Positions 3,311-45,057 of a stretch of 64,000 nt of DNA are shown here, piece by piece. A program made the position numbers and the translations under genes. The notes under the pieces are model-generated. The model was not told where the DNA came from. It saw only the letters and a list, made by a program, of their open reading frames with translations, and did not search any database. Origin of the DNA: Acidobacteriota bacterium. Its GTDB lineage: Bacteria > Acidobacteriota > Vicinamibacteria > Fen-336. The stretch covers positions 22,219-86,218 of the forward strand of contig WYBL01000086.1 in NCBI GenBank assembly GCA_011526565.1. The letters are read 5' to 3'. The stretch's first letter is position 1. Each line of letters opens with the position of its first letter.

Positions 3311-3511
3311 CTAGGGCTGGCGCCCCCGCTGCCCCGGCCCGCGGCGATCCCGAAGGGTGGCCTCCGCGTCGGCCAGGGCCTTGCGGACCATCTGCTGGGC
3401 CATGCGCTCGATCGGGTCGGCCGGTTCGGGCGGTGCCGGCGCCGCAGCCGCGAGTTCCCGGCGAAGCGCCTCGAGCGACCGGAACACCCGTGCCTTCGTT
3501 CGTTCGCTCAT
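3311..3511 (-). CDS. Small helical protein (66 aa), possible ribbon-helix-helix-like partner, translationally coupled to the upstream Ntn-hydrolase-like gene
   Basis: ATG at 3511 overlaps the stop of the upstream gene by 4 nt (ATGA); predicted beta-strand plus two helices (TKARVFRSLEALRREL ... PIERMAQQMVRKALADAEATLRDRR). Confidence 0.45.
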   Translation of the reverse strand: MSERTKARVFRSLEALRRELAAAAPAPPEPADPIERMAQQMVRKALADAEATLRDRRGPGQRGRQP

Positions 3512-5010
3512 TCCGAGTTCCCCTCGGCGACCGCACCCCCTCCGAAGTAGCGCTGCAGGAACTGGGGGTTGAGTTCGGCCTGGAAGTAGTGCTTTCGGCG
3601 CATCCAGATGAAGCCATCATGCTTGGAAATGACGGCCACGTCTATGGGGCCGCCCACCGTCTCCGGCCCGAGCGTGAAGCGGCGTTTCAGCGAAGTGAGC
3701 TGCACGAGCGCCTCCGCGAGCGCGGCCAGATCCTCCTTCCCGAGGTGCTGGACCGCCTCGATGACCGGGCCGATGCGAGCCTCGCGTCGGTGTTGATCCA
3801 TGGTGCGGTCGAGCGCGGCGAACATGCGCTCGCCGAGTGCCCGAACCTGGCCTCCAAGGTCCGCCACGGAACTCTCGCCGACCATCGCCTCGATCCGCCC
3901 CGGCAACTCCGTGACCAGAAGACGGCGCACCGTTTCCCGAAAGAGGTGCCGGGACTCCGGGTCCACTCCTTCCATGAACGTGGCCACCATGTCCCTCTGG
4001 GCGAAAGCCCGGACAGCAGCGCCCGCATCCAGGGTCAGGCGCGCAGGGGGCTCGCGGGCGATCTGTGGCCGCCCTTCGAGGCGCCCCCAGAGTCGGAGCG
4101 GGTGGAGCGCCGGCCGGTACTCGTCTCGACCGAAGCCCGCCACGACCAGCCCGGTGCTCGACGACAGCTCCTGGTCCTTCAGGCAGGAGAGCAGGCCCAG
4201 AGCCAGCGTCCGTTCCCGTTGCCCGGCGCTGATGCCGAGGTCCCCGAGCACGCGCTCGAAGGCCGTCTCCGCCAGCGGTCGCACCGAAGGATTCAACCGG
4301 GCCAGATCATCGGCCGCGAAACCGTCGAGGAACCCCTGGGCCGCCAGGTAGCTCTCACCCCGCTGGAGCACGTGGTCGAAGGCCACGGGGAGTTCGTCGA
4401 TCGACAGGCCAGAGGCTTCGATGGCCTGCCGGAGCTCCTGGGCCAGAGCGCGAAAGACGGCTTCCAGGGCGCTTGCGAGGAGCTGCGCTTCTTCCGACTC
4501 CGAGCAGAGCCTCTCGCCGGCGAGGAACTCGGCAAGAGCTTCGACGTATCCCTCGACCGTCGGGAAGGCCCGGGCCCCGAGCCGCACCCGGAACTGCTTG
4601 ATCACCGTCTCGGCCGGCAGTCCCGCGATCGAGGCGTTGCCGTAGACAATGATCCCGACCGGTTCGTGCTTCGAGAGCGCGAAGAGCTTGTTGACGGTGT
4701 TGTAGACCTTGCGCTGCGCGTCGGCGGGCGCCGTGATGGTCTCGATGGTGACCGCGCTGTCGGCGGCCAGAGCGACGGCTTGCGCGTTCAGGACGGCAAT
4801 CTCGGCAGTCAAGAACCCCTCCCCGCCGCGGGGAGGCGCGACCGGCCCCGATCCTCCGCCACCCGTCTGCCGCACCGGGACCGGCGCGGTATGCTCGGGT
4901 CGGCCTCGCAACTGTCGAGGCAGTTGTTGTTGCTGGGCCAGTCTCTTGGAGCAATCGGCACAGCCAAGCTCCTCACCGGTCACATGGACGGCCGCTTCCG
5001 GTACAACCAC
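3508..5010 (-). CDS. Divergent proteasome-beta/HslV-like Ntn-hydrolase-fold protein with large insertions (alternative TTG start at 4812 gives a 434-aa product beginning M-T-A-E-I-A-V)
   Basis: Motifs in order: TAEIAVLNAQAVALAADS (Thr1...Asp17-like), NKLFALSKHEPVGIIVYGNASIAG (Lys33-like and the GFAGxxADA-like strand), STGLVVAGFGRDEYRPALHPL, and C-terminal VGGPIDVAVISKHDGF (GGxIxVAVItkDG-like). TTG at 4812 is preceded by GGGGAGGGG; the ATG at 5010 would add a 66-aa low-complexity leader. Confidence 0.6.
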   Translation of the reverse strand: MVVPEAAVHVTGEELGCADCSKRLAQQQQLPRQLRGRPEHTAPVPVRQTGGGGSGPVAPPRGGEGFLTAEIAVLNAQAVALAADSAVTIETITAPADAQRKVYNTVNKLFALSKHEPVGIIVYGNASIAGLPAETVIKQFRVRLGARAFPTVEGYVEALAEFLAGERLCSESEEAQLLASALEAVFRALAQELRQAIEASGLSIDELPVAFDHVLQRGESYLAAQGFLDGFAADDLARLNPSVRPLAETAFERVLGDLGISAGQRERTLALGLLSCLKDQELSSSTGLVVAGFGRDEYRPALHPLRLWGRLEGRPQIAREPPARLTLDAGAAVRAFAQRDMVATFMEGVDPESRHLFRETVRRLLVTELPGRIEAMVGESSVADLGGQVRALGERMFAALDRTMDQHRREARIGPVIEAVQHLGKEDLAALAEALVQLTSLKRRFTLGPETVGGPIDVAVISKHDGFIWMRRKHYFQAELNPQFLQRYFGGGAVAEGNSE

Positions 5011-5284
5011 GTGGCTCCCGCAGGCATGCTCGGACTGGATACCGTGAATCAGCTCGACCCTCCGCGGCCTGGGAGAGGCCCTTGCCCGCGAAGCACTGCA
5101 GGAAGTCCACAGTGTTTTCCTCTCCGGTGAGCGCGAACCACTCGTGCCGTTCCATGGTCACCGGCCCTGAGCCAGCTTCCGCCACAGCCCCGTCGTCGTC
5201 TGGATCACCCGCACCAAGGTCTGGCGCGCCTCGATGGCCCGGTTCAAAGGCACCTCGCCATGAGCACCGGGAACGGTACGACCG

Positions 5285-5661
5285 CAGCGGTTCGTTGCCG
5301 TGGCCGTTTCGAGCTGTCGCTCCGCCGCCCACCGCGGAGCGCCGTGTCGAACCCTCGCGCCGGTAGGCGAAGCCCACGGCGCGCCACGTCGAGCTGGCGC
5401 TCCGTCACCCGAGCCGGCGGAGCGTCGGGTCGAACCCATCTGCGGAGCGTCGAGCTGATCTGCGAGGTGTCGATGCCGGCGAAGGGCACGGCCACGGTTC
5501 GACGCTGGTCTTAGCCCGCGTCAGCGGTGGCTCGACCCGGCGCACCGCCGGCCCAGGCGACGGTGCGTTCGTTCGACCCGGCGCGCGGCCGGCGCGGTCT
5601 CCCGCGCGCGGTTCGACTCGACACACCGCCGGAGTCCCGACGGTGTGCAGCTCGAGAACGG
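5285..5661 (+). repeat. Copy A of an about 350-bp GTCGAAC/GTTCGAC-rich repetitive element, directly abutting the 3' end of the Fic gene
   Basis: Near-identical over more than 240 bp to 6950-7190 (e.g. gggtcgaac..tctgcggagcgtcgagc..ggccacggttcgacgctgg..gtgcgttcgttcgacc..gcgcggttcga..cgagaacggc); multiple inverted heptamers. Confidence 0.8.
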
Positions 5662-6783
5662 CTAACCGGCCGCCGCGAACGGGTCGCCGACCAGCTTCTT
5701 TTCCGCGTATCGCTGTGCGAGTTCCCGCAACCCATCGGCAGCCACGTAGTGGCGCCCGCGCTTGTCGCCCACCGGCTGGAGATATCCCGCCTTCACGAGC
5801 GCGCGCAGGTCACGGCCCGCGGTGGCCTCGGTCACGTCAGCCGCGTTCCTGTACGTGGGATTCCGCACTCGGTAACCGATCGCAGCATCCGCGAGAGCCA
5901 GGACGCAACGATTCGGAAGGCCGCTCTGCTCGATGCGGCGCTCGAGTTCGTTGCAGATGTTTTCCATGGTGCGCTGCCGCCGCAGCAGGGTGTGCACCTG
6001 TCGATAGTGAGCCGTCAGGCAGAAACGGATCCACGGCCTGGCACTGTTCCCGGGGTTCCACGACCCCTGGCCGACTTCTGCCAACACACGGTAGTAGGCC
6101 TCGGTGTTTCGGCCCAGATATTCCTCGATGCTCGAGAAGACGGGCGGGATGTTCCCGCTTCGGGCCAGCACGAGCGTCTGAAGGCACCGGCCCATGCGCC
6201 CATTTCCGTCCGAGAACGGGTGGATCATCACGAGGTTCAGGTGAGCCATCGCGGCATCGACGAACGGTGAGTCCCCCGGCTCGGCCAGCGCGACCAACAG
6301 GGCCGAGATCAGGCTCGGGACAAGTTCGACAGGAGGGCCCTCGTAGACGCGCTCGCCGGTGCCGGACCTCTGCACGAAGATCGGCCCCGGGCGCCAGCGC
6401 CCGGGGTTCTTCGCCAGGTCATGGCCCGTCATCATGAAGTGGAGCGACTTCAGCAGCTCAGCCGAGTACTCGAAGTGGGCGTCGTCGGCCTTCTGAAGGA
6501 CCAGCGTCATCGCCTGGCGATACCCCGTGACCGCGGCCCAGGCTTCGTCCTTGGGCTCGAGCGGCTCCTCGCCCTCGACGGCCGCGACGGCATCGTCGAT
6601 CGTCACGTTGTAGCCTTCGATCGAGTTCGACCCCTGAACGGCTCGGGCAAAGGTGTTTCGCCTGAGCAGACCGCTCCAGCGCCGCGGCTGACTCAACGCG
6701 TACCGCAACTGGCTCCTGGCCTTGTCGATTTCGCCGATCACGGCCTGCTCGGCCTGGTCGGTCGGGGGTGCCTTGAAGATCAT
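5662..6783 (-). CDS. Fic family protein (class II Fic AMPylase with C-terminal winged-helix domain)
   Basis: Canonical Fic motif HPFSDGNGRMGR; N-terminal inhibitory motif SNSIEG ((S/T)xxxE(G/N)); 373 aa; C-terminal wHTH-like region. Confidence 0.9.
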   Translation of the reverse strand: MIFKAPPTDQAEQAVIGEIDKARSQLRYALSQPRRWSGLLRRNTFARAVQGSNSIEGYNVTIDDAVAAVEGEEPLEPKDEAWAAVTGYRQAMTLVLQKADDAHFEYSAELLKSLHFMMTGHDLAKNPGRWRPGPIFVQRSGTGERVYEGPPVELVPSLISALLVALAEPGDSPFVDAAMAHLNLVMIHPFSDGNGRMGRCLQTLVLARSGNIPPVFSSIEEYLGRNTEAYYRVLAEVGQGSWNPGNSARPWIRFCLTAHYRQVHTLLRRQRTMENICNELERRIEQSGLPNRCVLALADAAIGYRVRNPTYRNAADVTEATAGRDLRALVKAGYLQPVGDKRGRHYVAADGLRELAQRYAEKKLVGDPFAAAG

Positions 6784-6852
6784 GTCGGTTTGTCGGTTAC
6801 TTCATGCCCACGTGTCGGATAATAACAGGCATTCTGGACGACATTAACCGCG
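6784..6852 (-). promoter_or_regulatory. AT-rich putative promoter region of the Fic gene
   Basis: Local drop in GC (cggataataacaggcattctggacgacattaacc) immediately upstream of the Fic ATG; on the coding strand TTAATG-17nt-TATTAT lies about 45 nt upstream of the ATG. Confidence 0.3.
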
Positions 6853-6854
6853 AA

Positions 6855-7195
6855 TCGCGGACGTTGCCTTCGTTTCGAACCAGCGCTCCGCCGGCTGCCG
6901 GCGGAGCGTCGTGTCGAACCATCGCGCCACTCGGCGCAGCTCGTGGCGCGCCGGGTCGAACTCGTCTGCGGAGCGTCGAGCCGTCCTGCGGGGCGTCGAA
7001 GCCGGCGAACGACGCGGCCACGGTTCGACGCTGGTTGCGGCCCGGGTCAGTTGCAGCTCGACTCGGCGCACCGCTGGTTCCCGACGGTGCGTTCGTTCGA
7101 CCTGGGCGCGCGGCCGGCTACGGACACCCGCGCGCGGTTCGAGTCGGCACACCGTCGGGGTTGCAGCGGTGTGAAGGTTCGAGAACGGCCGCGTT
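6855..7195 (+). repeat. Copy B of the GTCGAAC/GTTCGAC-rich repetitive element (direct repeat of copy A)
   Basis: Same orientation and near-identical core as 5285-5661, ending ...ggttcgagaacggcc 22 bp before the FeS-gene start. Confidence 0.8.
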
Positions 7196-7216
7196 TGCTA
7201 GAGTACGCGCACCTTC

Positions 7217-8743
7217 ATGGCCACCGCTCCCCTCGAGCCCTCGCGCCCGGCGTCTGCCGCGCGGTGGGCGAAGCTGATCGACCACACCCGCTGCATCGGC
7301 TGCCACGCCTGTTCGACCGCGTGCAAGTCCGAGAACGAGGTGCCGCTGGGCGTGCAGCGCACGTACGTCAAGTACGTCGACGTCGGGCGCTTCCCGAACG
7401 CGCGGCGGGCCTTCCAGGTCACGCGGTGCAACCAGTGCGAAAACGCGCCCTGCACGATCGCCTGCCCGACGGCGGCGATGTACAAGCGCGGCGACGGCAT
7501 CGTCGACTTCGACAAGAACGCGTGCATCGGCTGCAAGGCGTGCATCGCCGCCTGCCCGTACGACGCGATCTTCATCAACCCCGACGACGGCGGCGCGGAG
7601 AAGTGCAACTTCTGTGCTCACCGCCTCGACGTCGGCCTCGAGCCCGCGTGCGTGACGGTGTGCCCGACCGAGGCGATCCTGGTCGGCGACCTCGACGACC
7701 CGCGCTCGCGGGTGGCGCGCGCCGTGGGCCGCGACGTCGTCCACGTCCGCAAGCCCGAGAAGAACACCCGGCCCAAGCTCTTCTACAAGGGCGCCCACGC
7801 GGCGACGCTCGACCCGCTGGCCGCGCGGCGGCCCGACGGCGGCCTGTTCCTGTGGAGCGAGCAGCGCGGCAACCACGTCGGTGGCGTCGGCTCCGGCGCC
7901 GCCGCGACGGTCAGCTCCGCCGCGGCGCTGCTCTCCTACGACGTGCCGCACCAGGCGCCGTGGGGCTGGCGCGTCAGCCTCTACACGTGGACCAAGGGCA
8001 TCGCCGCCGGCGCCTACCTCGCGGCGCTGGCCGCCGGCGCCCACGGCGCGCTGTGGGCGTGGGGCGTGCCGATCCTGGCCGGCTTCTTCCTGGCCCTCAC
8101 CGGCCTGCTGCTGATCGCCGACTTGAAGCGCCCCGAGCGCTTCTACCTGATCTTCACGCGCCCGCAGTGGAAGAGCTGGCTGACCCGCGGCGCGGTCGTG
8201 ATCACGCTCTACACCGGCCTCCTGGTCGCGCACTTCCTGGGCTCGGTGTTCGGCCTCGACCGGGCCCGCGACGCGCTCGTCCTGCCCGGCGCGCTGCTGG
8301 CCGCGGCGACCGCGGCCTACACCGCGTGGCTGTTCGCCCAGGCCCACGCCCGCGACCTGTGGCAGAGCCCGCTGCTGCTGCCGCAGCTCCTGGTCCAGGC
8401 GCTGCTCGTCGGCTCCGCCGCGCTGCTGCCGGTCGCCGCCTTCCTGCGCGACCGCGCCGAGCGCGACCTCGCGCTGCTGCTGGCGGTGGGCGCCGTCGCC
8501 CACCTCGTCTGCGTCGCCGGCGAGGTGCTGCTGCCGCACGCCACGGCCCACGCCCGCCAGGCCGTGGCCGAGATGACGCGCGGCCGCTACGCCGCGCTCT
8601 TCTGGGGCGGCCTCGTGCTGCAGGCCGCGGGCGTGTTCAGCGGCCCGCTCGGCGCGGTGCCCGCCGCGGTGCTGGTCCTCGCGGGCGTGCTGCTCTACGA
8701 GCACGCGTACGTCCAGTCCGCGCAATCGGTGCCGCTCGCCTGA
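7217..8743 (+). CDS. Fused 4Fe-4S ferredoxin-type (PsrB/DmsB-like) and NrfD/PsrC-like membrane anchor subunit of a molybdopterin oxidoreductase
   Basis: Four Cys clusters (CIGCHACSTAC, CNQCENAPCTIACP, CIGCKACIAACP, CNFC...CVTVCP) followed by about 8 TM helices of NrfD type; no twin-arginine signal. Confidence 0.85.
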   Translation: MATAPLEPSRPASAARWAKLIDHTRCIGCHACSTACKSENEVPLGVQRTYVKYVDVGRFPNARRAFQVTRCNQCENAPCTIACPTAAMYKRGDGIVDFDKNACIGCKACIAACPYDAIFINPDDGGAEKCNFCAHRLDVGLEPACVTVCPTEAILVGDLDDPRSRVARAVGRDVVHVRKPEKNTRPKLFYKGAHAATLDPLAARRPDGGLFLWSEQRGNHVGGVGSGAAATVSSAAALLSYDVPHQAPWGWRVSLYTWTKGIAAGAYLAALAAGAHGALWAWGVPILAGFFLALTGLLLIADLKRPERFYLIFTRPQWKSWLTRGAVVITLYTGLLVAHFLGSVFGLDRARDALVLPGALLAAATAAYTAWLFAQAHARDLWQSPLLLPQLLVQALLVGSAALLPVAAFLRDRAERDLALLLAVGAVAHLVCVAGEVLLPHATAHARQAVAEMTRGRYAALFWGGLVLQAAGVFSGPLGAVPAAVLVLAGVLLYEHAYVQSAQSVPLA

Positions 8744-11606: not shown

Positions 11607-11670
11607 CCCTCGGCCGTCGCCCCCCCGAGTTCCCGTCTGCGCGATCTCGTGGGCCCGTAAATATGGGAAT

Positions 11671-11937
11671 ATGGGGACCGTGAAGACGACGATCGAGCTG
11701 CCGGACGCCCTGTTCCGGAGTGCCAAGGCCCGGGCCGCCGAGCGGGGCCAGCCGCTCAAGCAGTTCGTCACCGAGGCCCTCCAGGAGAAGCTCGCCGGGA
11801 GACCTCGCCGCAGTGCAGACGAACCCGCGTGGATGCGTGGCTTCGGGGGCCTGAAGGACCTGCGCGCGGAGACCCGGCGGGTGCAGCGCCGGATCGACGC
11901 CGCATTCGAGGAGATCGAACCCGAGGACCGGGCGTGA
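11671..11937 (+). CDS. vapB: Type II antitoxin (VapB-like) of a VapBC module
   Basis: 88-aa ORF, stop overlaps the PIN-gene GTG start (GTGA at 11934-11937). Confidence 0.65.
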   Translation: MGTVKTTIELPDALFRSAKARAAERGQPLKQFVTEALQEKLAGRPRRSADEPAWMRGFGGLKDLRAETRRVQRRIDAAFEEIEPEDRA

Positions 11938-12326
11938 TCCTCGACACGAACGCGCTCTCGGCCTTCGTCGACGGGTCCCCGGCCATCGGCGACGTGGTCC
12001 GCGGACAGCGGCGCCTCGCCCTCCCGGTTGTCGTGATCGGCGAGTTCCGCTACGGCATCGCGATGTCGCGGCACCGCGCAGCCTACGAGCGCTGGCTCGA
12101 CGAGCACGCGCGCGATTTCGAGATCCTGGACGTGACCGAGGCGACCGCCGCCGTGTACGCAGCGCTTCGAGTCGAGCTGAAGCGGCGGGGGCGGCCGATT
12201 CCGGCGATCGACGCCTGGATCGCCGCGCTCGCACTCGAGCACGGCCTGCCCGTGCTCTCCCGCGACGCACACTTCGACGTGGTGGCCGGTCTCCACCGCG
12301 TCGACTGGTCGGTCTCCGCGGGCTGA
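11934..12326 (+). CDS. vapC: PIN-domain toxin VapC
   Basis: VILDTNALSAF N-terminus (Asp of the PIN active site), about 130 aa; longer ORF from 11829 is a GC-rich upstream extension. Confidence 0.8.
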   Translation: MILDTNALSAFVDGSPAIGDVVRGQRRLALPVVVIGEFRYGIAMSRHRAAYERWLDEHARDFEILDVTEATAAVYAALRVELKRRGRPIPAIDAWIAALALEHGLPVLSRDAHFDVVAGLHRVDWSVSAG

Positions 12327-12373
12327 CGGCCGGCGGCTCGTCGAATGCGCTTGACTTCGGTCGCTGATGAACA

Positions 12374-12399
12374 CATACTGAACCATATGGTTCAGTATG
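12374..12399 (+). promoter_or_regulatory. 26-bp perfect palindrome CATACTGAACCATATGGTTCAGTATG centred on the ArsR start codon; putative ArsR/SmtB operator
   Basis: Perfect inverted repeat (13/13) with centre at ATAT; the in-frame ATG at 12387 lies at its centre. Confidence 0.6.
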
Positions 12400-36497: not shown

Positions 36498-36584
36498 GGA
36501 GGGCTAGCCTAACGGTAAGGCAGGAGCCTTGAAAGCTCCCGGGCCGCAAGGCCCTTGGGGGTTCGAATCCCTCGCCCTCCGCCA
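36498..36584 (+). tRNA. tRNA-Ser (anticodon UGA), 87 nt with long variable arm and encoded CCA
   Basis: Acceptor GGAGGGC/GCCCTCC, D-stem GCCT/AGGC, anticodon stem GGAGC/GCTCC with loop CTTGAAA, variable arm GGGCC-GCAA-GGCCC, T-loop TTCGAAT, discriminator G, CCA. Confidence 0.9.
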
Positions 36585-42866: not shown

Positions 42867-43277
42867 TTGCGGGTCTTCCTCGACGCCAACGTGCTGTTCT
42901 CGGCGGCGGCTCACGACGGCGCCGCGCGTGAACTCTGCAGGCGACTCCACGTCGCGGGACACGAGCTGGTCGCCGACGCCTTCGTGATCGAGGAAGCGCG
43001 CCGCAACCTCGCCGCGAAGGTCGGGGGGGCGACGGCCTGGGAGGCCATCCGCGCCCTGCTTGCCGAGACGCCGGCAGCGACCGCAGACCAGCGTCTTCCT
43101 CCCGAGGCGTCGGGCCTTGCAGAGAAGGATCGCCCGGTACTCGTCGCAGCGATCGTGCACCGCTGCGACTACCTGGTCACGGGTGATCGCACCCATTTCG
43201 GATTCCTGTTCGGGAGAAGGGTCGGCGGCGTCCGCGTCGCGTCGCTGCGTCAGCTCGCCGAGGCCCTGCTCCGCTGA
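42867..43277 (+). CDS. vapC: PIN-domain toxin VapC
   Basis: RVFLDANVLFSA N-terminus, TGD motif near C-terminus; TTG start 8 nt after antitoxin stop. Confidence 0.8.
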   Translation: MRVFLDANVLFSAAAHDGAARELCRRLHVAGHELVADAFVIEEARRNLAAKVGGATAWEAIRALLAETPAATADQRLPPEASGLAEKDRPVLVAAIVHRCDYLVTGDRTHFGFLFGRRVGGVRVASLRQLAEALLR

Positions 43278-44700: not shown

Positions 44701-45057
44701 GAAGGGGAGCGTACCGCCAGAACCCGACCGGCGCAGCCCGGCCGCCCGTGCGCGGTCGGGTACCGCGGCGCACCGCCCCGACTGCGGAGCGGCGAGTGCC
44801 GCGCTCCGTTGCCCCGACCGTGCGCCGGTCGCTTGCCGTGGCGCATCGCCCCGACCGGCGATAGCCCGCCCCGTCCGTTCCAGTCGCGCCGTTTCGCTTC
44901 GACGTCGGCTCACGGTTCGACCCGGCGCTCCGCTGCTCAACCCGGCGGAGCGTTCGTTCGACGTCAGCGCGCGGCGGTACCCGGCCGCGCGCGGTTCGAC
45001 TGGGCGCTCCGACTGCAAACGCCGGAGCGACGGTTCGAAAACGGGCGTGAGGGTGGG
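44701..45057 (+). repeat. Copy C (more diverged) of the GTCGAAC/GTTCGAC-rich repetitive element, intergenic
   Basis: Shares gcgttcgttcgac, gcgcggttcgac, cggttcgaaaacgg blocks with copies A/B; lies between two same-strand genes. Confidence 0.6.

Follow-up and report, generated by a model that had tools for sequence, protein, structure and literature searches.

BOX elements of Streptococcus pneumoniae and MITEs of the ERIC/Correia type consist of inverted-repeat end modules and variable internal units of ~40-45 nt. These elements are intergenic, encode no enzyme, and form a stable fold over the whole element. Chromosomal integrons store defence and toxin cassettes. REP elements are divided into GTAG- and CGTC-tagged superfamilies where those under the CGTC superfamily have a CGTC tag, a stem of 8-9 bp, a loop of 4-5 nt, and a CCA-like tail (PMC3733652). 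Core defence hotspots are located between conserved genes, such as cDHS1/2 of Pseudomonas aeruginosa (PMC10250203). SoFic is a single-gene anti-phage system (PADLOC SoFic; PMC12249575).

The window analysed in this work is a stretch of 64,000 nt from an Acidobacteriota bacterium of the Vicinamibacteria. A Fic gene in this window lies between two repeats, A and B, and a third and shorter repeat, C, lies further downstream. We conclude that the locus is a small defence hotspot that is bracketed by a new REP/BOX-like element family. The locus gives a base-pair view of a single defence gene that was swapped into a fixed chromosomal slot of an uncultured soil lineage, where one swap junction is kept as the chimeric C-terminal tail of Fic. 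The features of the window that are discussed in this work are as follows.

3311..4812, minus strand: gene pair (66 aa and 434 aa) at the left edge of the variable region, with atypical codon usage
5171..5235, minus strand: 3' remnant of a '23S rRNA IVP' four-helix-bundle gene that is intact beside A in a relative
5285..5662, no strand: element A, a structured foldback repeat with CM R1 matches of 41-52 bits
5662..5681, minus strand: tail of the Fic ORF (PFAAAG*), the last six codons and the stop, homologous to the 3' end of the HIRAN gene of relatives
5662..6783, minus strand: Fic (Fido) AMP-transferase gene, class II, SoFic type, 373 aa, the current cargo of the slot
6784..6870, minus strand: region upstream of Fic, 87 nt, AT-rich, part of the cargo
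6871..7195, no strand: element B, a paralogue of A in the same orientation that ends 22 nt before the FeS-NrfD start codon
7217..11606, plus strand: conserved right flank, a fused 4Fe-4S/NrfD protein and a molybdopterin oxidoreductase (Pfam)
44887..45047, no strand: element C, a short third family member with both termini, inverted relative to the left half of A

Architecture of the repeats

The sequence-only reading had described two direct repeats of ~350 bp around Fic. Alignment of A (5285-5661) with B (6855-7195) using MAFFT and blastn confirmed that the repeats are real and lie in the same orientation. Their identity is about 81-82%, which is lower than the value of more than 85% over more than 240 bp that had been given for them. 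The mean column identity is 82% between 5270-5670 and 6840-7216 in the MAFFT alignment, where one 41-nt block that is present in A is missing from B. The blastn alignment covers 246 nt at 81.3% (E 1.6e-60) and another 70 nt at 80%. The longest uninterrupted exact match is 21 nt, which should make excision by RecA a rare event. All pairwise comparisons of A and B give identities of 76-86%, which indicates that the copies are old, and their orthology is not clean. The left halves of A and B are 91% identical in the relative L213, which points to a pair of old paralogues with gene conversion.

A chance control over 1.46 Mb of sequence showed chains of at least three TCGA-tagged units at a spacing of 34-46 nt at no place other than A, B, and a third locus (44915-45033, within C). 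The window holds three copies of the element. The parts of these copies and their orthologues in related loci (L011, L213, L214, L219, and L220) are as follows.

A, termini: left GGCCGTTTCGAGC at 5302; right GCTCGAGAACGGC at 5650-5662
A, full units in reverse orientation: 5309-5346, 5347-5388, 5389-5429
A, full units in forward orientation: 5536-5576, 5577-5616, 5617-5655 (six full units in total)
A, middle: two 20-nt half units and a centre, between the reverse and forward unit sets
A, orthologues: L213 7722-8142; L214 69-205; one-unit version in L011 at ~8040-8100
B, termini: left CGTTTCGAACC at 6871; right GGTTCGAGAACGGCC at 7176-7190
B, full units in reverse orientation: 6875-6913, 6914-6955
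B, full units in forward orientation: 7062-7100, 7102-7142, 7143-7182 (five full units in total)
B, orthologues with the same starting terminus: L213 9673; L214 2534; L011 ~9815
C, three hairpin units: 44921-44961, 44963-44999, 45000-45038
C, context: between an OpuAC-type ABC permease gene and an M20 peptidase gene
C, orthologous copies: L219 7326-7470; L220 6742-6814 (the site is conserved in relatives)

The unit is ~40 nt long (a period of 38-42 nt) and consists of a GC-rich hairpin of the GCGCnCCG type with a stem of 7-8 bp and a loop of 7-14 nt and then the tag G(T/C)TCGA, which closes each of the 33 aligned units. The left-half units of an element point in the opposite direction to its right-half units, and the whole element is a foldback of about 330-380 bp (325-378 nt). 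The number of units between the same termini is modular and ranges from 1 to about 7. The termini are inverted repeats (GGCCGTTTCGA... / ...TCGARAACGGCC) as in MITEs. The left terminus GGCCGTTTCGA(R)C pairs with the right terminus G(Y)TCGA(R)AACGGCC in the consensus fold, where the R/Y position covaries (GC:2, AU:2, GU:1; GC/AU at columns 29/372).

The pairing of the units is well conserved. Paired bases occupy 99.6% of the stem cells in the 33 aligned units, double changes occur in four of the seven stem pairs, and the observed covariation score was reached by none of 500 shuffles. The 231 stem cells contain no G-U pair, and they vary by double Watson-Crick changes only. Both observations fit pairing at the DNA level or on both strands better than selection on one RNA strand. 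The RNA fold of A is -237 kcal/mol (z -6.4) and the DNA fold of B has a z of -4.1. No terminator was called in A or B by the terminator scan.

Strong units of CM R1 are confined to A, B, C, and their orthologues; searches of 79 distant syntenic loci (1.3 Mb) and of other metagenome loci (0.49 Mb) gave none. The matches listed by a metagenome scan with the pattern GTTCGACN{30,36}GTTCGACN{30,36}GTTCGA are unrelated tandem repeats or coding sequences, and no R1 units were found in those 80 loci. The only Rfam match of the window above the gathering score is a tRNA, and a search of 5150-7300 with E up to 5 gave chance-level matches only (E of at least 0.26). A tRNA-like reading of the repeats was considered because GGTTCGA resembles a T-loop, and it was rejected as no tRNA/tmRNA model matches at the repeats. 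The ORFs within the repeats, such as 5405-5626 on the minus strand, were attributed to the high GC content and set aside, since they cross the hairpin units and their frames are not conserved. A, B, and C are an uncatalogued REP/BOX-like structured repeat family that is lineage-specific in Acidobacteriota, with strong hairpin covariation and an unusual tag.

The Fic gene and the slot between A and B

The Fic protein matches the Pfam Fic family (47 bits against a cut-off of 24; 4.7e-12) and has a weak Fic_N match over residues 47-94. The active-site motif HxFx(D/E)GNGRxxR is found as HPFSDGNGRMGR at residues 188-199. The inhibitory motif (S/T)xxxE(G/N) is found N-terminal to the Fic core as SNSIEG at residues 52-57. 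Both motifs of the earlier class-II assignment were located. The PADLOC SoFic model PDLC03963 matches residues 13-353 on profile positions 22-356 of 361 (E 1.1e-49), while the score for the NCBIfam SoFic equivalog NF046030 is 47.9 bits against a cut-off of 550. The relatives in PDB are 4rgl and SoFic 3eqx/3zcn, where the SoFic chains match residues ~131-259 only. Fic is thus predicted to be an autoinhibited AMP-transferase with a SNSIEG helix and a HPFSDGNGRMGR active site, and it may act as an abortive-infection toxin by analogy with SoFic.

The GC3 of Fic is 0.84 compared to 0.95-0.98 in its neighbours, and the best Fic homologue outside its own cluster is 68% identical. A foreign origin of Fic is therefore likely, as the sequence-only reading had suggested. 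The upstream region (6784-6870) is 52% GC compared to 72% GC for the window, carries TGTCGGTT twice at 6783-6798 and the palindrome CCGCGAATCGCGG at 6848-6860, and has no counterpart in L011, L213, and L214. This region had been described as an AT-rich promoter island. The AT-richness holds, and no promoter was called upstream of Fic by the sigma-70 consensus scan. The closest Fic homologues elsewhere are located in other contexts, and these repeats were not found around them.

The FeS-NrfD neighbour was used as a genome-search query and matched 79 distant genomes and a single close one, L011. The identity of this neighbour to relatives is 98%, 94%, and 86%. The nucleotide identity of the right flank is 97% for L011, 91.5% for L213, and 84% for L214. 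The slot was compared among four lineages, all of them metagenome assemblies, with the direction of some events inferred by parsimony. A and B are found at the same places in all three relatives, and the genes between them differ from those of the window. The slot of L011 contains HIRAN and HipA-like genes. The slot of L213 contains HIRAN, UPF0175, and DUF3368 genes. The slot of L214 contains UPF0175, HIRAN, and HipA-like genes. The cargo of relatives matches the PADLOC candidate systems PDC-M03A/B (2e-97 and 9e-86) and PDC-S70 (2e-50). The locus hence has the conserved flanks and differing defence content of a core defence hotspot, with SoFic, PDC-M03, or PDC-M03B and PDC-S70 as the content. 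The slot is about 1.2-2 kb with one to three genes, and the cargo genes occur in both orientations with their own upstream regions.

This synteny bears out the earlier view that the segment between the repeats is exchangeable. It overturns the view that the repeats are an insertion footprint of Fic, since they predate Fic and bracket HIRAN/HipA-like or UPF0175/DUF3368 genes elsewhere. A and B are old resident copies around a slot with differing cargo; Fic is therefore the present occupant of this slot rather than a mobile cassette complete in itself.

The two edges of the Fic cargo were located by alignment. The Fic stop codon (5662-5664) abuts the right terminus of A (GCTCGAGAACGGC) and overlaps it by 1 nt. 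The DNA of the window, L011, L213, and L214 is conserved through CTA(A/T)CC(G/C)GCCGCCG and divergent thereafter, and the Fic homologues keep ...AEPKxxxDPF followed by unrelated tails. The Fic ORF ends in 20 nt (…AAAG*) that formerly were the 3' end of HIRAN, so Fic replaced the HIRAN module. The left boundary of the cargo lies 20 nt inside the Fic ORF, in this remnant of the former tenant, and not at the end of A. Four lineages have a junction at the left end of B, L214 has one in the middle of A, and L219 has one at the terminus of C. The junctions recur at element termini or inside elements and not in core genes. Since homology must resume wherever the sequence is conserved, this clustering could be trivial in part.

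The region on the left of A is also variable. The IVP remnant (window 5171-5232) is 82% identical to L213 7194-7255 by blastn and 85-89% identical over 19-20 aa by tblastn, and L213 7187-7552 matches PF05635/TIGR02436. The IVP gene, a spacer, and three units form a 700-nt module at two loci of one genome with 76% identity, and the IVP part is precisely missing beside C in the window. The gene pair at 3311..4812 has a GC3 of 0.84-0.85 and no Pfam, PADLOC, or NCBIfam matches. It is partly deleted in relatives, where L011 is without window 3741-4490 and most of 4535-5275, and L213 has fragments only.

Explanations for the bracketed slot

We consider it likely that A and B are old resident hairpin-rich elements that bracket a hotspot of changing defence and toxin cargo, with Fic as the current, horizontally acquired tenant. 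The repeats would be neither generated by the Fic gene nor travelling with it. The comparison shows that A and B stood, in direct orientation and upstream of the FeS-NrfD/molybdopterin oxidoreductase operon, before this Vicinamibacteria clade diverged. The older content of the slot is the HIRAN and HipA-like pair (candidate PDC-M03), with or without UPF0175/DUF3368 (candidate PDC-S70). This module was replaced here by a SoFic-type Fic gene, probably acquired horizontally, with its own AT-rich upstream region. The left junction falls within the final 20 nt of the HIRAN ORF, today the Fic tail AAAG*, and the right junction at the left terminus of B. The hairpin arrays may be break- or recombination-prone sites at the DNA level and may also provide portable homology. 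Such arrays would concentrate replacement events at their edges, judging only from the clustering of the junctions. Insulation of the operon and capping of the cargo transcript at its 3' end are further possible roles.

It is possible but unlikely that the elements are purely cis-acting host RNA/DNA signals, where the cargo turns over through flanking core-gene homology and the hairpins contribute nothing. They would then act as multi-hairpin protectors or terminators at the 3' end of the cargo gene and as a leader or insulator for the FeS-NrfD operon. The positions of the elements agree with such roles, as B lies 22-60 nt upstream of the FeS-NrfD start in every case and A and C always lie directly after a stop codon. 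The very stable folds agree with them as well, and defence hotspots that are flanked by core genes and lack mobile-element genes have been documented (PMC10250203). However, no T-runs follow the hairpins, the 231 stem cells vary by double Watson-Crick changes without G-U pairs, and the junctions avoid the core genes.

We also regard as unlikely that the elements are non-autonomous DNA of the MITE, REP, or BOX kind that was moved in trans, possibly with the IVP gene, so that the bracket arose from two independent insertions and became a gene trap later. The inverted termini, the modular number of units, the three copies in 64 kb, the 700-nt module at two loci, and the precise loss of the IVP part beside C would all suit this explanation. 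However, every relative examined has A, B, and C at the orthologous sites, and the elements thus showed no presence/absence polymorphism in this set. No target-site duplication was recognised at the element ends, the scan of window ORFs revealed neither a transposase nor a RAYT, and the copies are old.

It is improbable that the TCGA-tagged arrays are recombination sites of an undescribed cassette-capture system that swaps small defence or toxin modules precisely at element termini. Such a system might use the linked four-helix-bundle (Avd/IVP-family) gene or an unlinked enzyme acting on ssDNA hairpins. It would be parallel to integrons in function, with different sites and enzymes.

The sequence-only reading had favoured a mobile or excisable Fic cassette, in which the repeats come from insertion into a member of a repeat family or recombination between members (Campbell-type) and recombination of A with B excises the gene. 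This explanation is now highly doubtful. It accounts for the direct repeats of ~350 bp around a 1.2-kb gene of foreign composition and for the content between the repeats that differs among relatives. However, both repeats are also present in relatives without Fic, the left junction lies inside the ORF, and close Fic homologues are without the repeats. The explanation predicts an empty site with one repeat copy, and none was seen: nine of nine contigs with an identical FeS-NrfD neighbour carry Fic, and none of the 21 Fic-carrying contigs shows such a site. No integrase or transposase was found nearby, among the called genes within 10 kb on each side in four lineages and the window ORFs scanned. 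The identity of A and B (81%) and their exact matches of at most 21 nt also stand against excision.

An integron-like cassette (CALIN), where A and B are attC-type sites used by an integrase encoded elsewhere, would explain structured imperfect-palindromic repeats that flank a single defence or toxin ORF, one of them directly after the stop codon, but it is extremely unlikely since the elements are 330-380 nt compared to 57-141 nt for attC, the R'/R'' core (GTTRRRY/RYYYAAC) is absent with ends of GTTCGAG and GTTTCGA that have C at the first R position, the cargo occurs in both orientations with its own upstream region, the left junction is inside the ORF, and no Phage_integrase family match was found among the called genes within 10 kb on each side in four lineages.

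If the hairpin arrays truly focus recombination, they would offer a simple and enzyme-light route to micro defence islands. They would also be useful in practice as markers of new defence genes in the high-GC genomes of soil bacteria. Otherwise, the locus is a small hotspot of the ordinary kind.

Comparison with known systems

The elements resemble REP/BIME in their short GC-rich hairpins with a conserved unpaired tag, which are clustered in both orientations in intergenic regions beside stop codons. The stem sequence varies in both while the pairing is kept. The elements differ from REP/BIME in the tag, which is G(T/C)TCGA and not GTAG or CGTC, in the loops of 7-14 nt, and in the head-to-tail units of 38-42 nt period within a bounded element with inverted termini. 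An assignment to GTAG-REP was rejected with GTAG in 0 of the 33 aligned units, and one to CGTC-REP with stems of 7-8 bp, loops of 7-14 nt, and the tag TCGA. A RAYT (Y1 transposase) gene was looked for and not found in the scanned ORFs of the window and in the genes called at related loci.

The elements share with BOX and ERIC/Correia the modular build, inverted ends, variable unit number, stable fold, intergenic location, and lack of an enzyme. However, they have no sequence relationship to those elements, their host belongs to Acidobacteriota, and all three copies are syntenic across relatives. Of the traits of MITEs, presence/absence polymorphism was seen in none of the relatives examined, and no target-site duplication was seen at the element ends.

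The locus resembles an integron cassette or CALIN in that single accessory genes, promoter-poor or self-contained, lie between structured imperfect palindromes, with toxin or defence cargo being common. The attC features and the integrase are absent here, and the elements are 3-5 times longer than attC. The attC reading was set aside with neither the core sites R''/R' (RYYYAAC...GTTRRRY) nor a length of 57-141 nt in these elements of 325-378 nt.

The Fic protein resembles SoFic in the N-terminal inhibitory helix motif, the Fic core HxFx(D/E)GNGRxxR, the C-terminal domain, the length of ~370 aa, and the near full-length match to the PADLOC profile. It is only distantly related to the SoFic of S. 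oneidensis by NCBIfam score (47.9 bits compared to 550), and its activity is a predicted one. No small downstream AS1-like antitoxin gene is recognisable here, where the stop codon directly abuts A.

The locus resembles the core defence hotspots in its fixed site, varying defence content, lower-GC cargo, and lack of obvious mobile-element genes. It differs from them in the very small slot of 1.2-2 kb with one to three genes. The slot is also bracketed by two paralogous structured repeats and not only by core genes or tRNA/tmRNA.

The Fic gene and the two elements around it

The features of the window that are considered in this part are listed here.

5285-5661/5662: element A, left copy of the repeat
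5662-6783 (-): Fic ORF of 373 aa (Pfam Fic, 47 bits; cut-off 24)
6855/6871-7195: element B, right copy of the repeat
44887-45047: element C, a shorter three-unit copy with both termini, flanked by an OpuAC-type ABC permease gene and an M20 peptidase gene

In the Fic protein, residues 188-199 are HPFSDGNGRMGR and residues 52-57 are the inhibitory motif SNSIEG, which together indicate a class-II arrangement, as the sequence-only reading had proposed. PADLOC assigned the protein to the SoFic profile (1e-49), and SoFic has been reported as an abortive-infection toxin (PMC12249575). By analogy, the most likely reading is that the protein is a toxin of this kind, an AMP-transferase under autoinhibition. 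No recognisable antitoxin gene was found downstream of Fic. The Fic start codon and element B are 87 nt apart, and the intervening sequence has a GC content of 52% compared with 72% for the window, which bears out the AT-rich stretch that had been noticed upstream of Fic. An exact 8-nt tandem repeat (TGTCGGTT x2, 6783-6798) overlaps the Fic start codon and a 13-nt palindrome (CCGCGAATCGCGG, 6848-6860) is located at the distal end of this stretch; both may have a regulatory role in the incoming cassette.

Elements A and B are in the same orientation with 82% column identity in the alignment, and blastn reported 81% identity across 246 nt (E 1.6e-60). Direct repeats thus do bracket Fic, at 81-82% identity in place of the >85% that had been estimated. 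A 41-nt block is present in A and absent from B. Rather than plain repeats, both are chains of 38-42-nt units (both copies cut at every TCGA), where each unit consists of a 7-8 bp GC-rich hairpin of the type GCGCnCCG...CGGnGCGC followed by G(T/C)TCGA. The left three units of each copy are oppositely oriented to the right three, and the two sets are separated by two 20-nt half-units and a centre of less regular build. Inverted repeats form the outer ends of A (GGCCGTTTCGAGC at 5302 and GCTCGAGAACGGC at 5650) and of B (CGTTTCGAACC at 6871 and GGTTCGAGAACGGCC at 7176). The repeats have no family match in Rfam. The only Rfam match above gathering score in the window is an 84-nt tRNA gene (36498-36581, +, 58 bits) downstream of a GAF-domain gene.

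The hairpin was evaluated from an alignment of 33 units taken from the window and its relatives. Watson-Crick pairs occupy 99.6% of the stem cells, and pairing drops to 21-25% when the partner is slid by one column. Both-sided changes occur at four of the seven stem positions, the central pair being split among G-C (12 units), U-A (12 units), and A-U (9 units), and the observed covariation score was reached by none of 500 shuffles. The variation consists throughout of complete Watson-Crick switches; no pair exhibits a one-sided change, and G-U pairs are absent from all 231 stem cells. Because G-U pairs are absent, we favour pairing that would matter on both strands, either as DNA or through palindrome repair by template switching. 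Selection on a one-strand RNA fits the stem pairing less well. The two termini also pair in the consensus fold of five full-length copies, where an R/Y position covaries, and single copies fold far better than shuffles (z -6.4 and -4.1).

Exchange of cargo between A and B

Relatives beyond L011 (MAG ACD1) were obtained through protein look-ups. L011 has ~97% nucleotide identity to the window on both sides of the region, and L211 belongs to the same species (97.7% nucleotide identity). The fused 4Fe-4S/NrfD protein (FeS-NrfD) encoded to the right of B places the organism among the Vicinamibacteria (Acidobacteriota), and it is 94% identical in L213 and 86% in L214. In all four relatives, B begins at the same terminus directly upstream of the FeS-NrfD gene, and element A, full or shortened, is located further left. 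The genes between A and B differ as follows.

Content of the segment between A and B
Window and L211: Fic
L011: HIRAN-domain gene and HipA-like kinase gene
L213: HIRAN, UPF0175, and DUF3368
L214: 69-aa ORF, UPF0175, HIRAN, and a frameshifted HipA-like gene, with element A split by insertion

By PADLOC profile, the HIRAN and HipA-like genes correspond to candidate system PDC-M03 (9e-86 and 2e-97), and the UPF0175/DUF3368 genes to candidate system PDC-S70 (2e-50). Since the HIRAN proteins of three relatives are 76-83% identical, the HIRAN module is probably the older occupant and Fic the newcomer in the window lineage. In L214, the 69-aa ORF and UPF0175 gene (209-830) part the left units of A from its right-terminus remnant (GGCTCGAACG), which still abuts the HIRAN stop codon.

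The comparison of syntenic loci thus recovered Fic as present or absent by lineage, with both repeats kept where it is absent. A and B bracket other cargo in L011, L213, and L214, which contradicts the proposal that the repeats are the footprint of Fic insertion.

The junctions also preserve traces of exchange. The window is homologous to L011 and L213 beyond the end of A, for a further 20 nt that belong to the Fic ORF. This stretch takes in CTAACCGGCCGCCGCGAA, which reads ...F A A A G stop on the opposite strand; the equivalent in the relatives is ...(T/A) A A G stop at the HIRAN gene 3' end. Fic homologues conserve AEPKxxxDPF and then have unrelated tails of 2-25 residues, and the window protein ends with DPF and then AAAG. 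These two observations indicate that the incoming Fic gene was probably joined to the terminal codons of the gene that it displaced, which would explain why its stop codon lies exactly against element A. On the right, the cargo of all four lineages stops at B's left terminus, and three different sequences abut it.

A gene pair of 66 aa and 434 aa at 3311-4812 (-) has GC3 of 0.84-0.85 and no Pfam, PADLOC, or NCBIfam match; the 434-aa gene has an internal deletion in L011 and is in fragments in L213. The pair may represent one more accessory or defence module in decay, edging the same variable region. A second variable spot closely follows the molybdopterin oxidoreductase gene (window 11622-12375, L213 14384-16030) and contains an 88-aa ORF and a PIN-domain gene, VapBC-like, in the window lineage (genes called in L211) and a 548-aa B12-binding radical SAM gene in L213.

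Origin and mobility of Fic

The foreign origin that had been suggested for Fic is supported by its GC3 of 0.84, compared with 0.95-0.98 in seven surrounding housekeeping genes, and by its best homologue outside its own 99-100% cluster, which is 68% identical among thousands. Two of the closest homologues occur in other contexts (a PIN/RHH cluster; beside WYL and methyltransferase genes), and no elements of A/B type were found around those two.

The cassette had also been considered mobile or excisable. The segment is exchangeable, as its cargo differs among relatives, but there is no sign of present mobility. The identical Fic protein is encoded on 21 contigs from many sequencing runs, with the same context in all 21. 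Nine contigs encode the identical FeS-NrfD protein; each has Fic upstream of that gene or ends inside Fic, and the predicted single-repeat empty site was not seen among them. No integrase, transposase, or RAYT was identified among the called genes of four lineages (within 10 kb) or among 15 additional ORFs of the window. Because A and B have no uninterrupted identity longer than 21 bases, a length that does not exceed the minimum efficient processing segment of RecA recombination, they should rarely recombine to excise the segment.

The repeat family and its comparison with known systems

Strong matches (28-53 bits) to a covariance model of the hairpin unit are confined to A, B, C, and their counterparts in related contigs. 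The model has no matches in 79 distant syntenic loci (1.3 Mb), in 0.49 Mb of other metagenome loci, or around the closest Fic homologues. Within the data reached, the family is small and lineage-specific.

Several observations concern element C. A second GC-rich hairpin array of the same stem type directly adjoins it (44730-44880) and is kept in L219 (7480-7640; on the same JGI contig as L213), with the tag CCCCGACC/GGTCGGGG in place of GTTCGA. A PIN-domain ORF (42867-43277, +; counterpart region L219 9089-9744) is ~1.5 kb from C, and a MazE-like partner called in the relative makes it another toxin-antitoxin pair close to a family member. A 700-nt module (four-helix-bundle '23S rRNA IVP' gene, PF05635/TIGR02436, spacer, and first three hairpin units) is found at two loci of that relative (Ga0498931_0001042; L219 6780-7453 and L213 7198-7888) with 76% identity. 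Beside C, the window lacks precisely the IVP part (45044-45047; L219 6773-7325 has no counterpart), and the IVP gene is reduced to a 3' remnant beside A (5171-5235). From this module and its absence or remnant in the window, IVP genes may travel with, or insert beside, hairpin elements.

Pairwise identities are 76-86% among both window copies, both L213 copies, and L214 B, without clean separation of orthologues, and in L213 the left half of A is 91% identical to that of B, which together suggest that A and B are old paralogues exchanging sequence. Unit number also varies: L011 A has one unit, one unit is missing in window B and L011 B, and L213 B lacks its centre. Breakpoints recur at or inside the elements, namely at the left end of B (four lineages), in the middle of A (L214), and at the terminus of C, next to which L219 carries a 553-nt four-helix-bundle gene cassette that the window lacks exactly. 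That breakpoints fall there repeatedly suggests that breakage or recombination would be drawn to the hairpin arrays themselves, and part of the pattern may be trivial.

The best fit is a very small hotspot of defence or toxin genes bracketed by two resident structured-repeat copies. The repeats have none of the defining features of integron attC sites. They resemble REP/BIME clusters without the tag that defines either REP superfamily (PMC3733652), and their modular build is like that of pneumococcal BOX elements. The segment between A and B would work similarly to the core defence hotspots of Pseudomonas, which have conserved flanks and no mobile-element genes and may be moved by homologous recombination of the flanks (PMC10250203). 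What is new here is a structured repeat family, together with a clear case in which a defence gene was replaced, from an uncultured lineage of Acidobacteriota.
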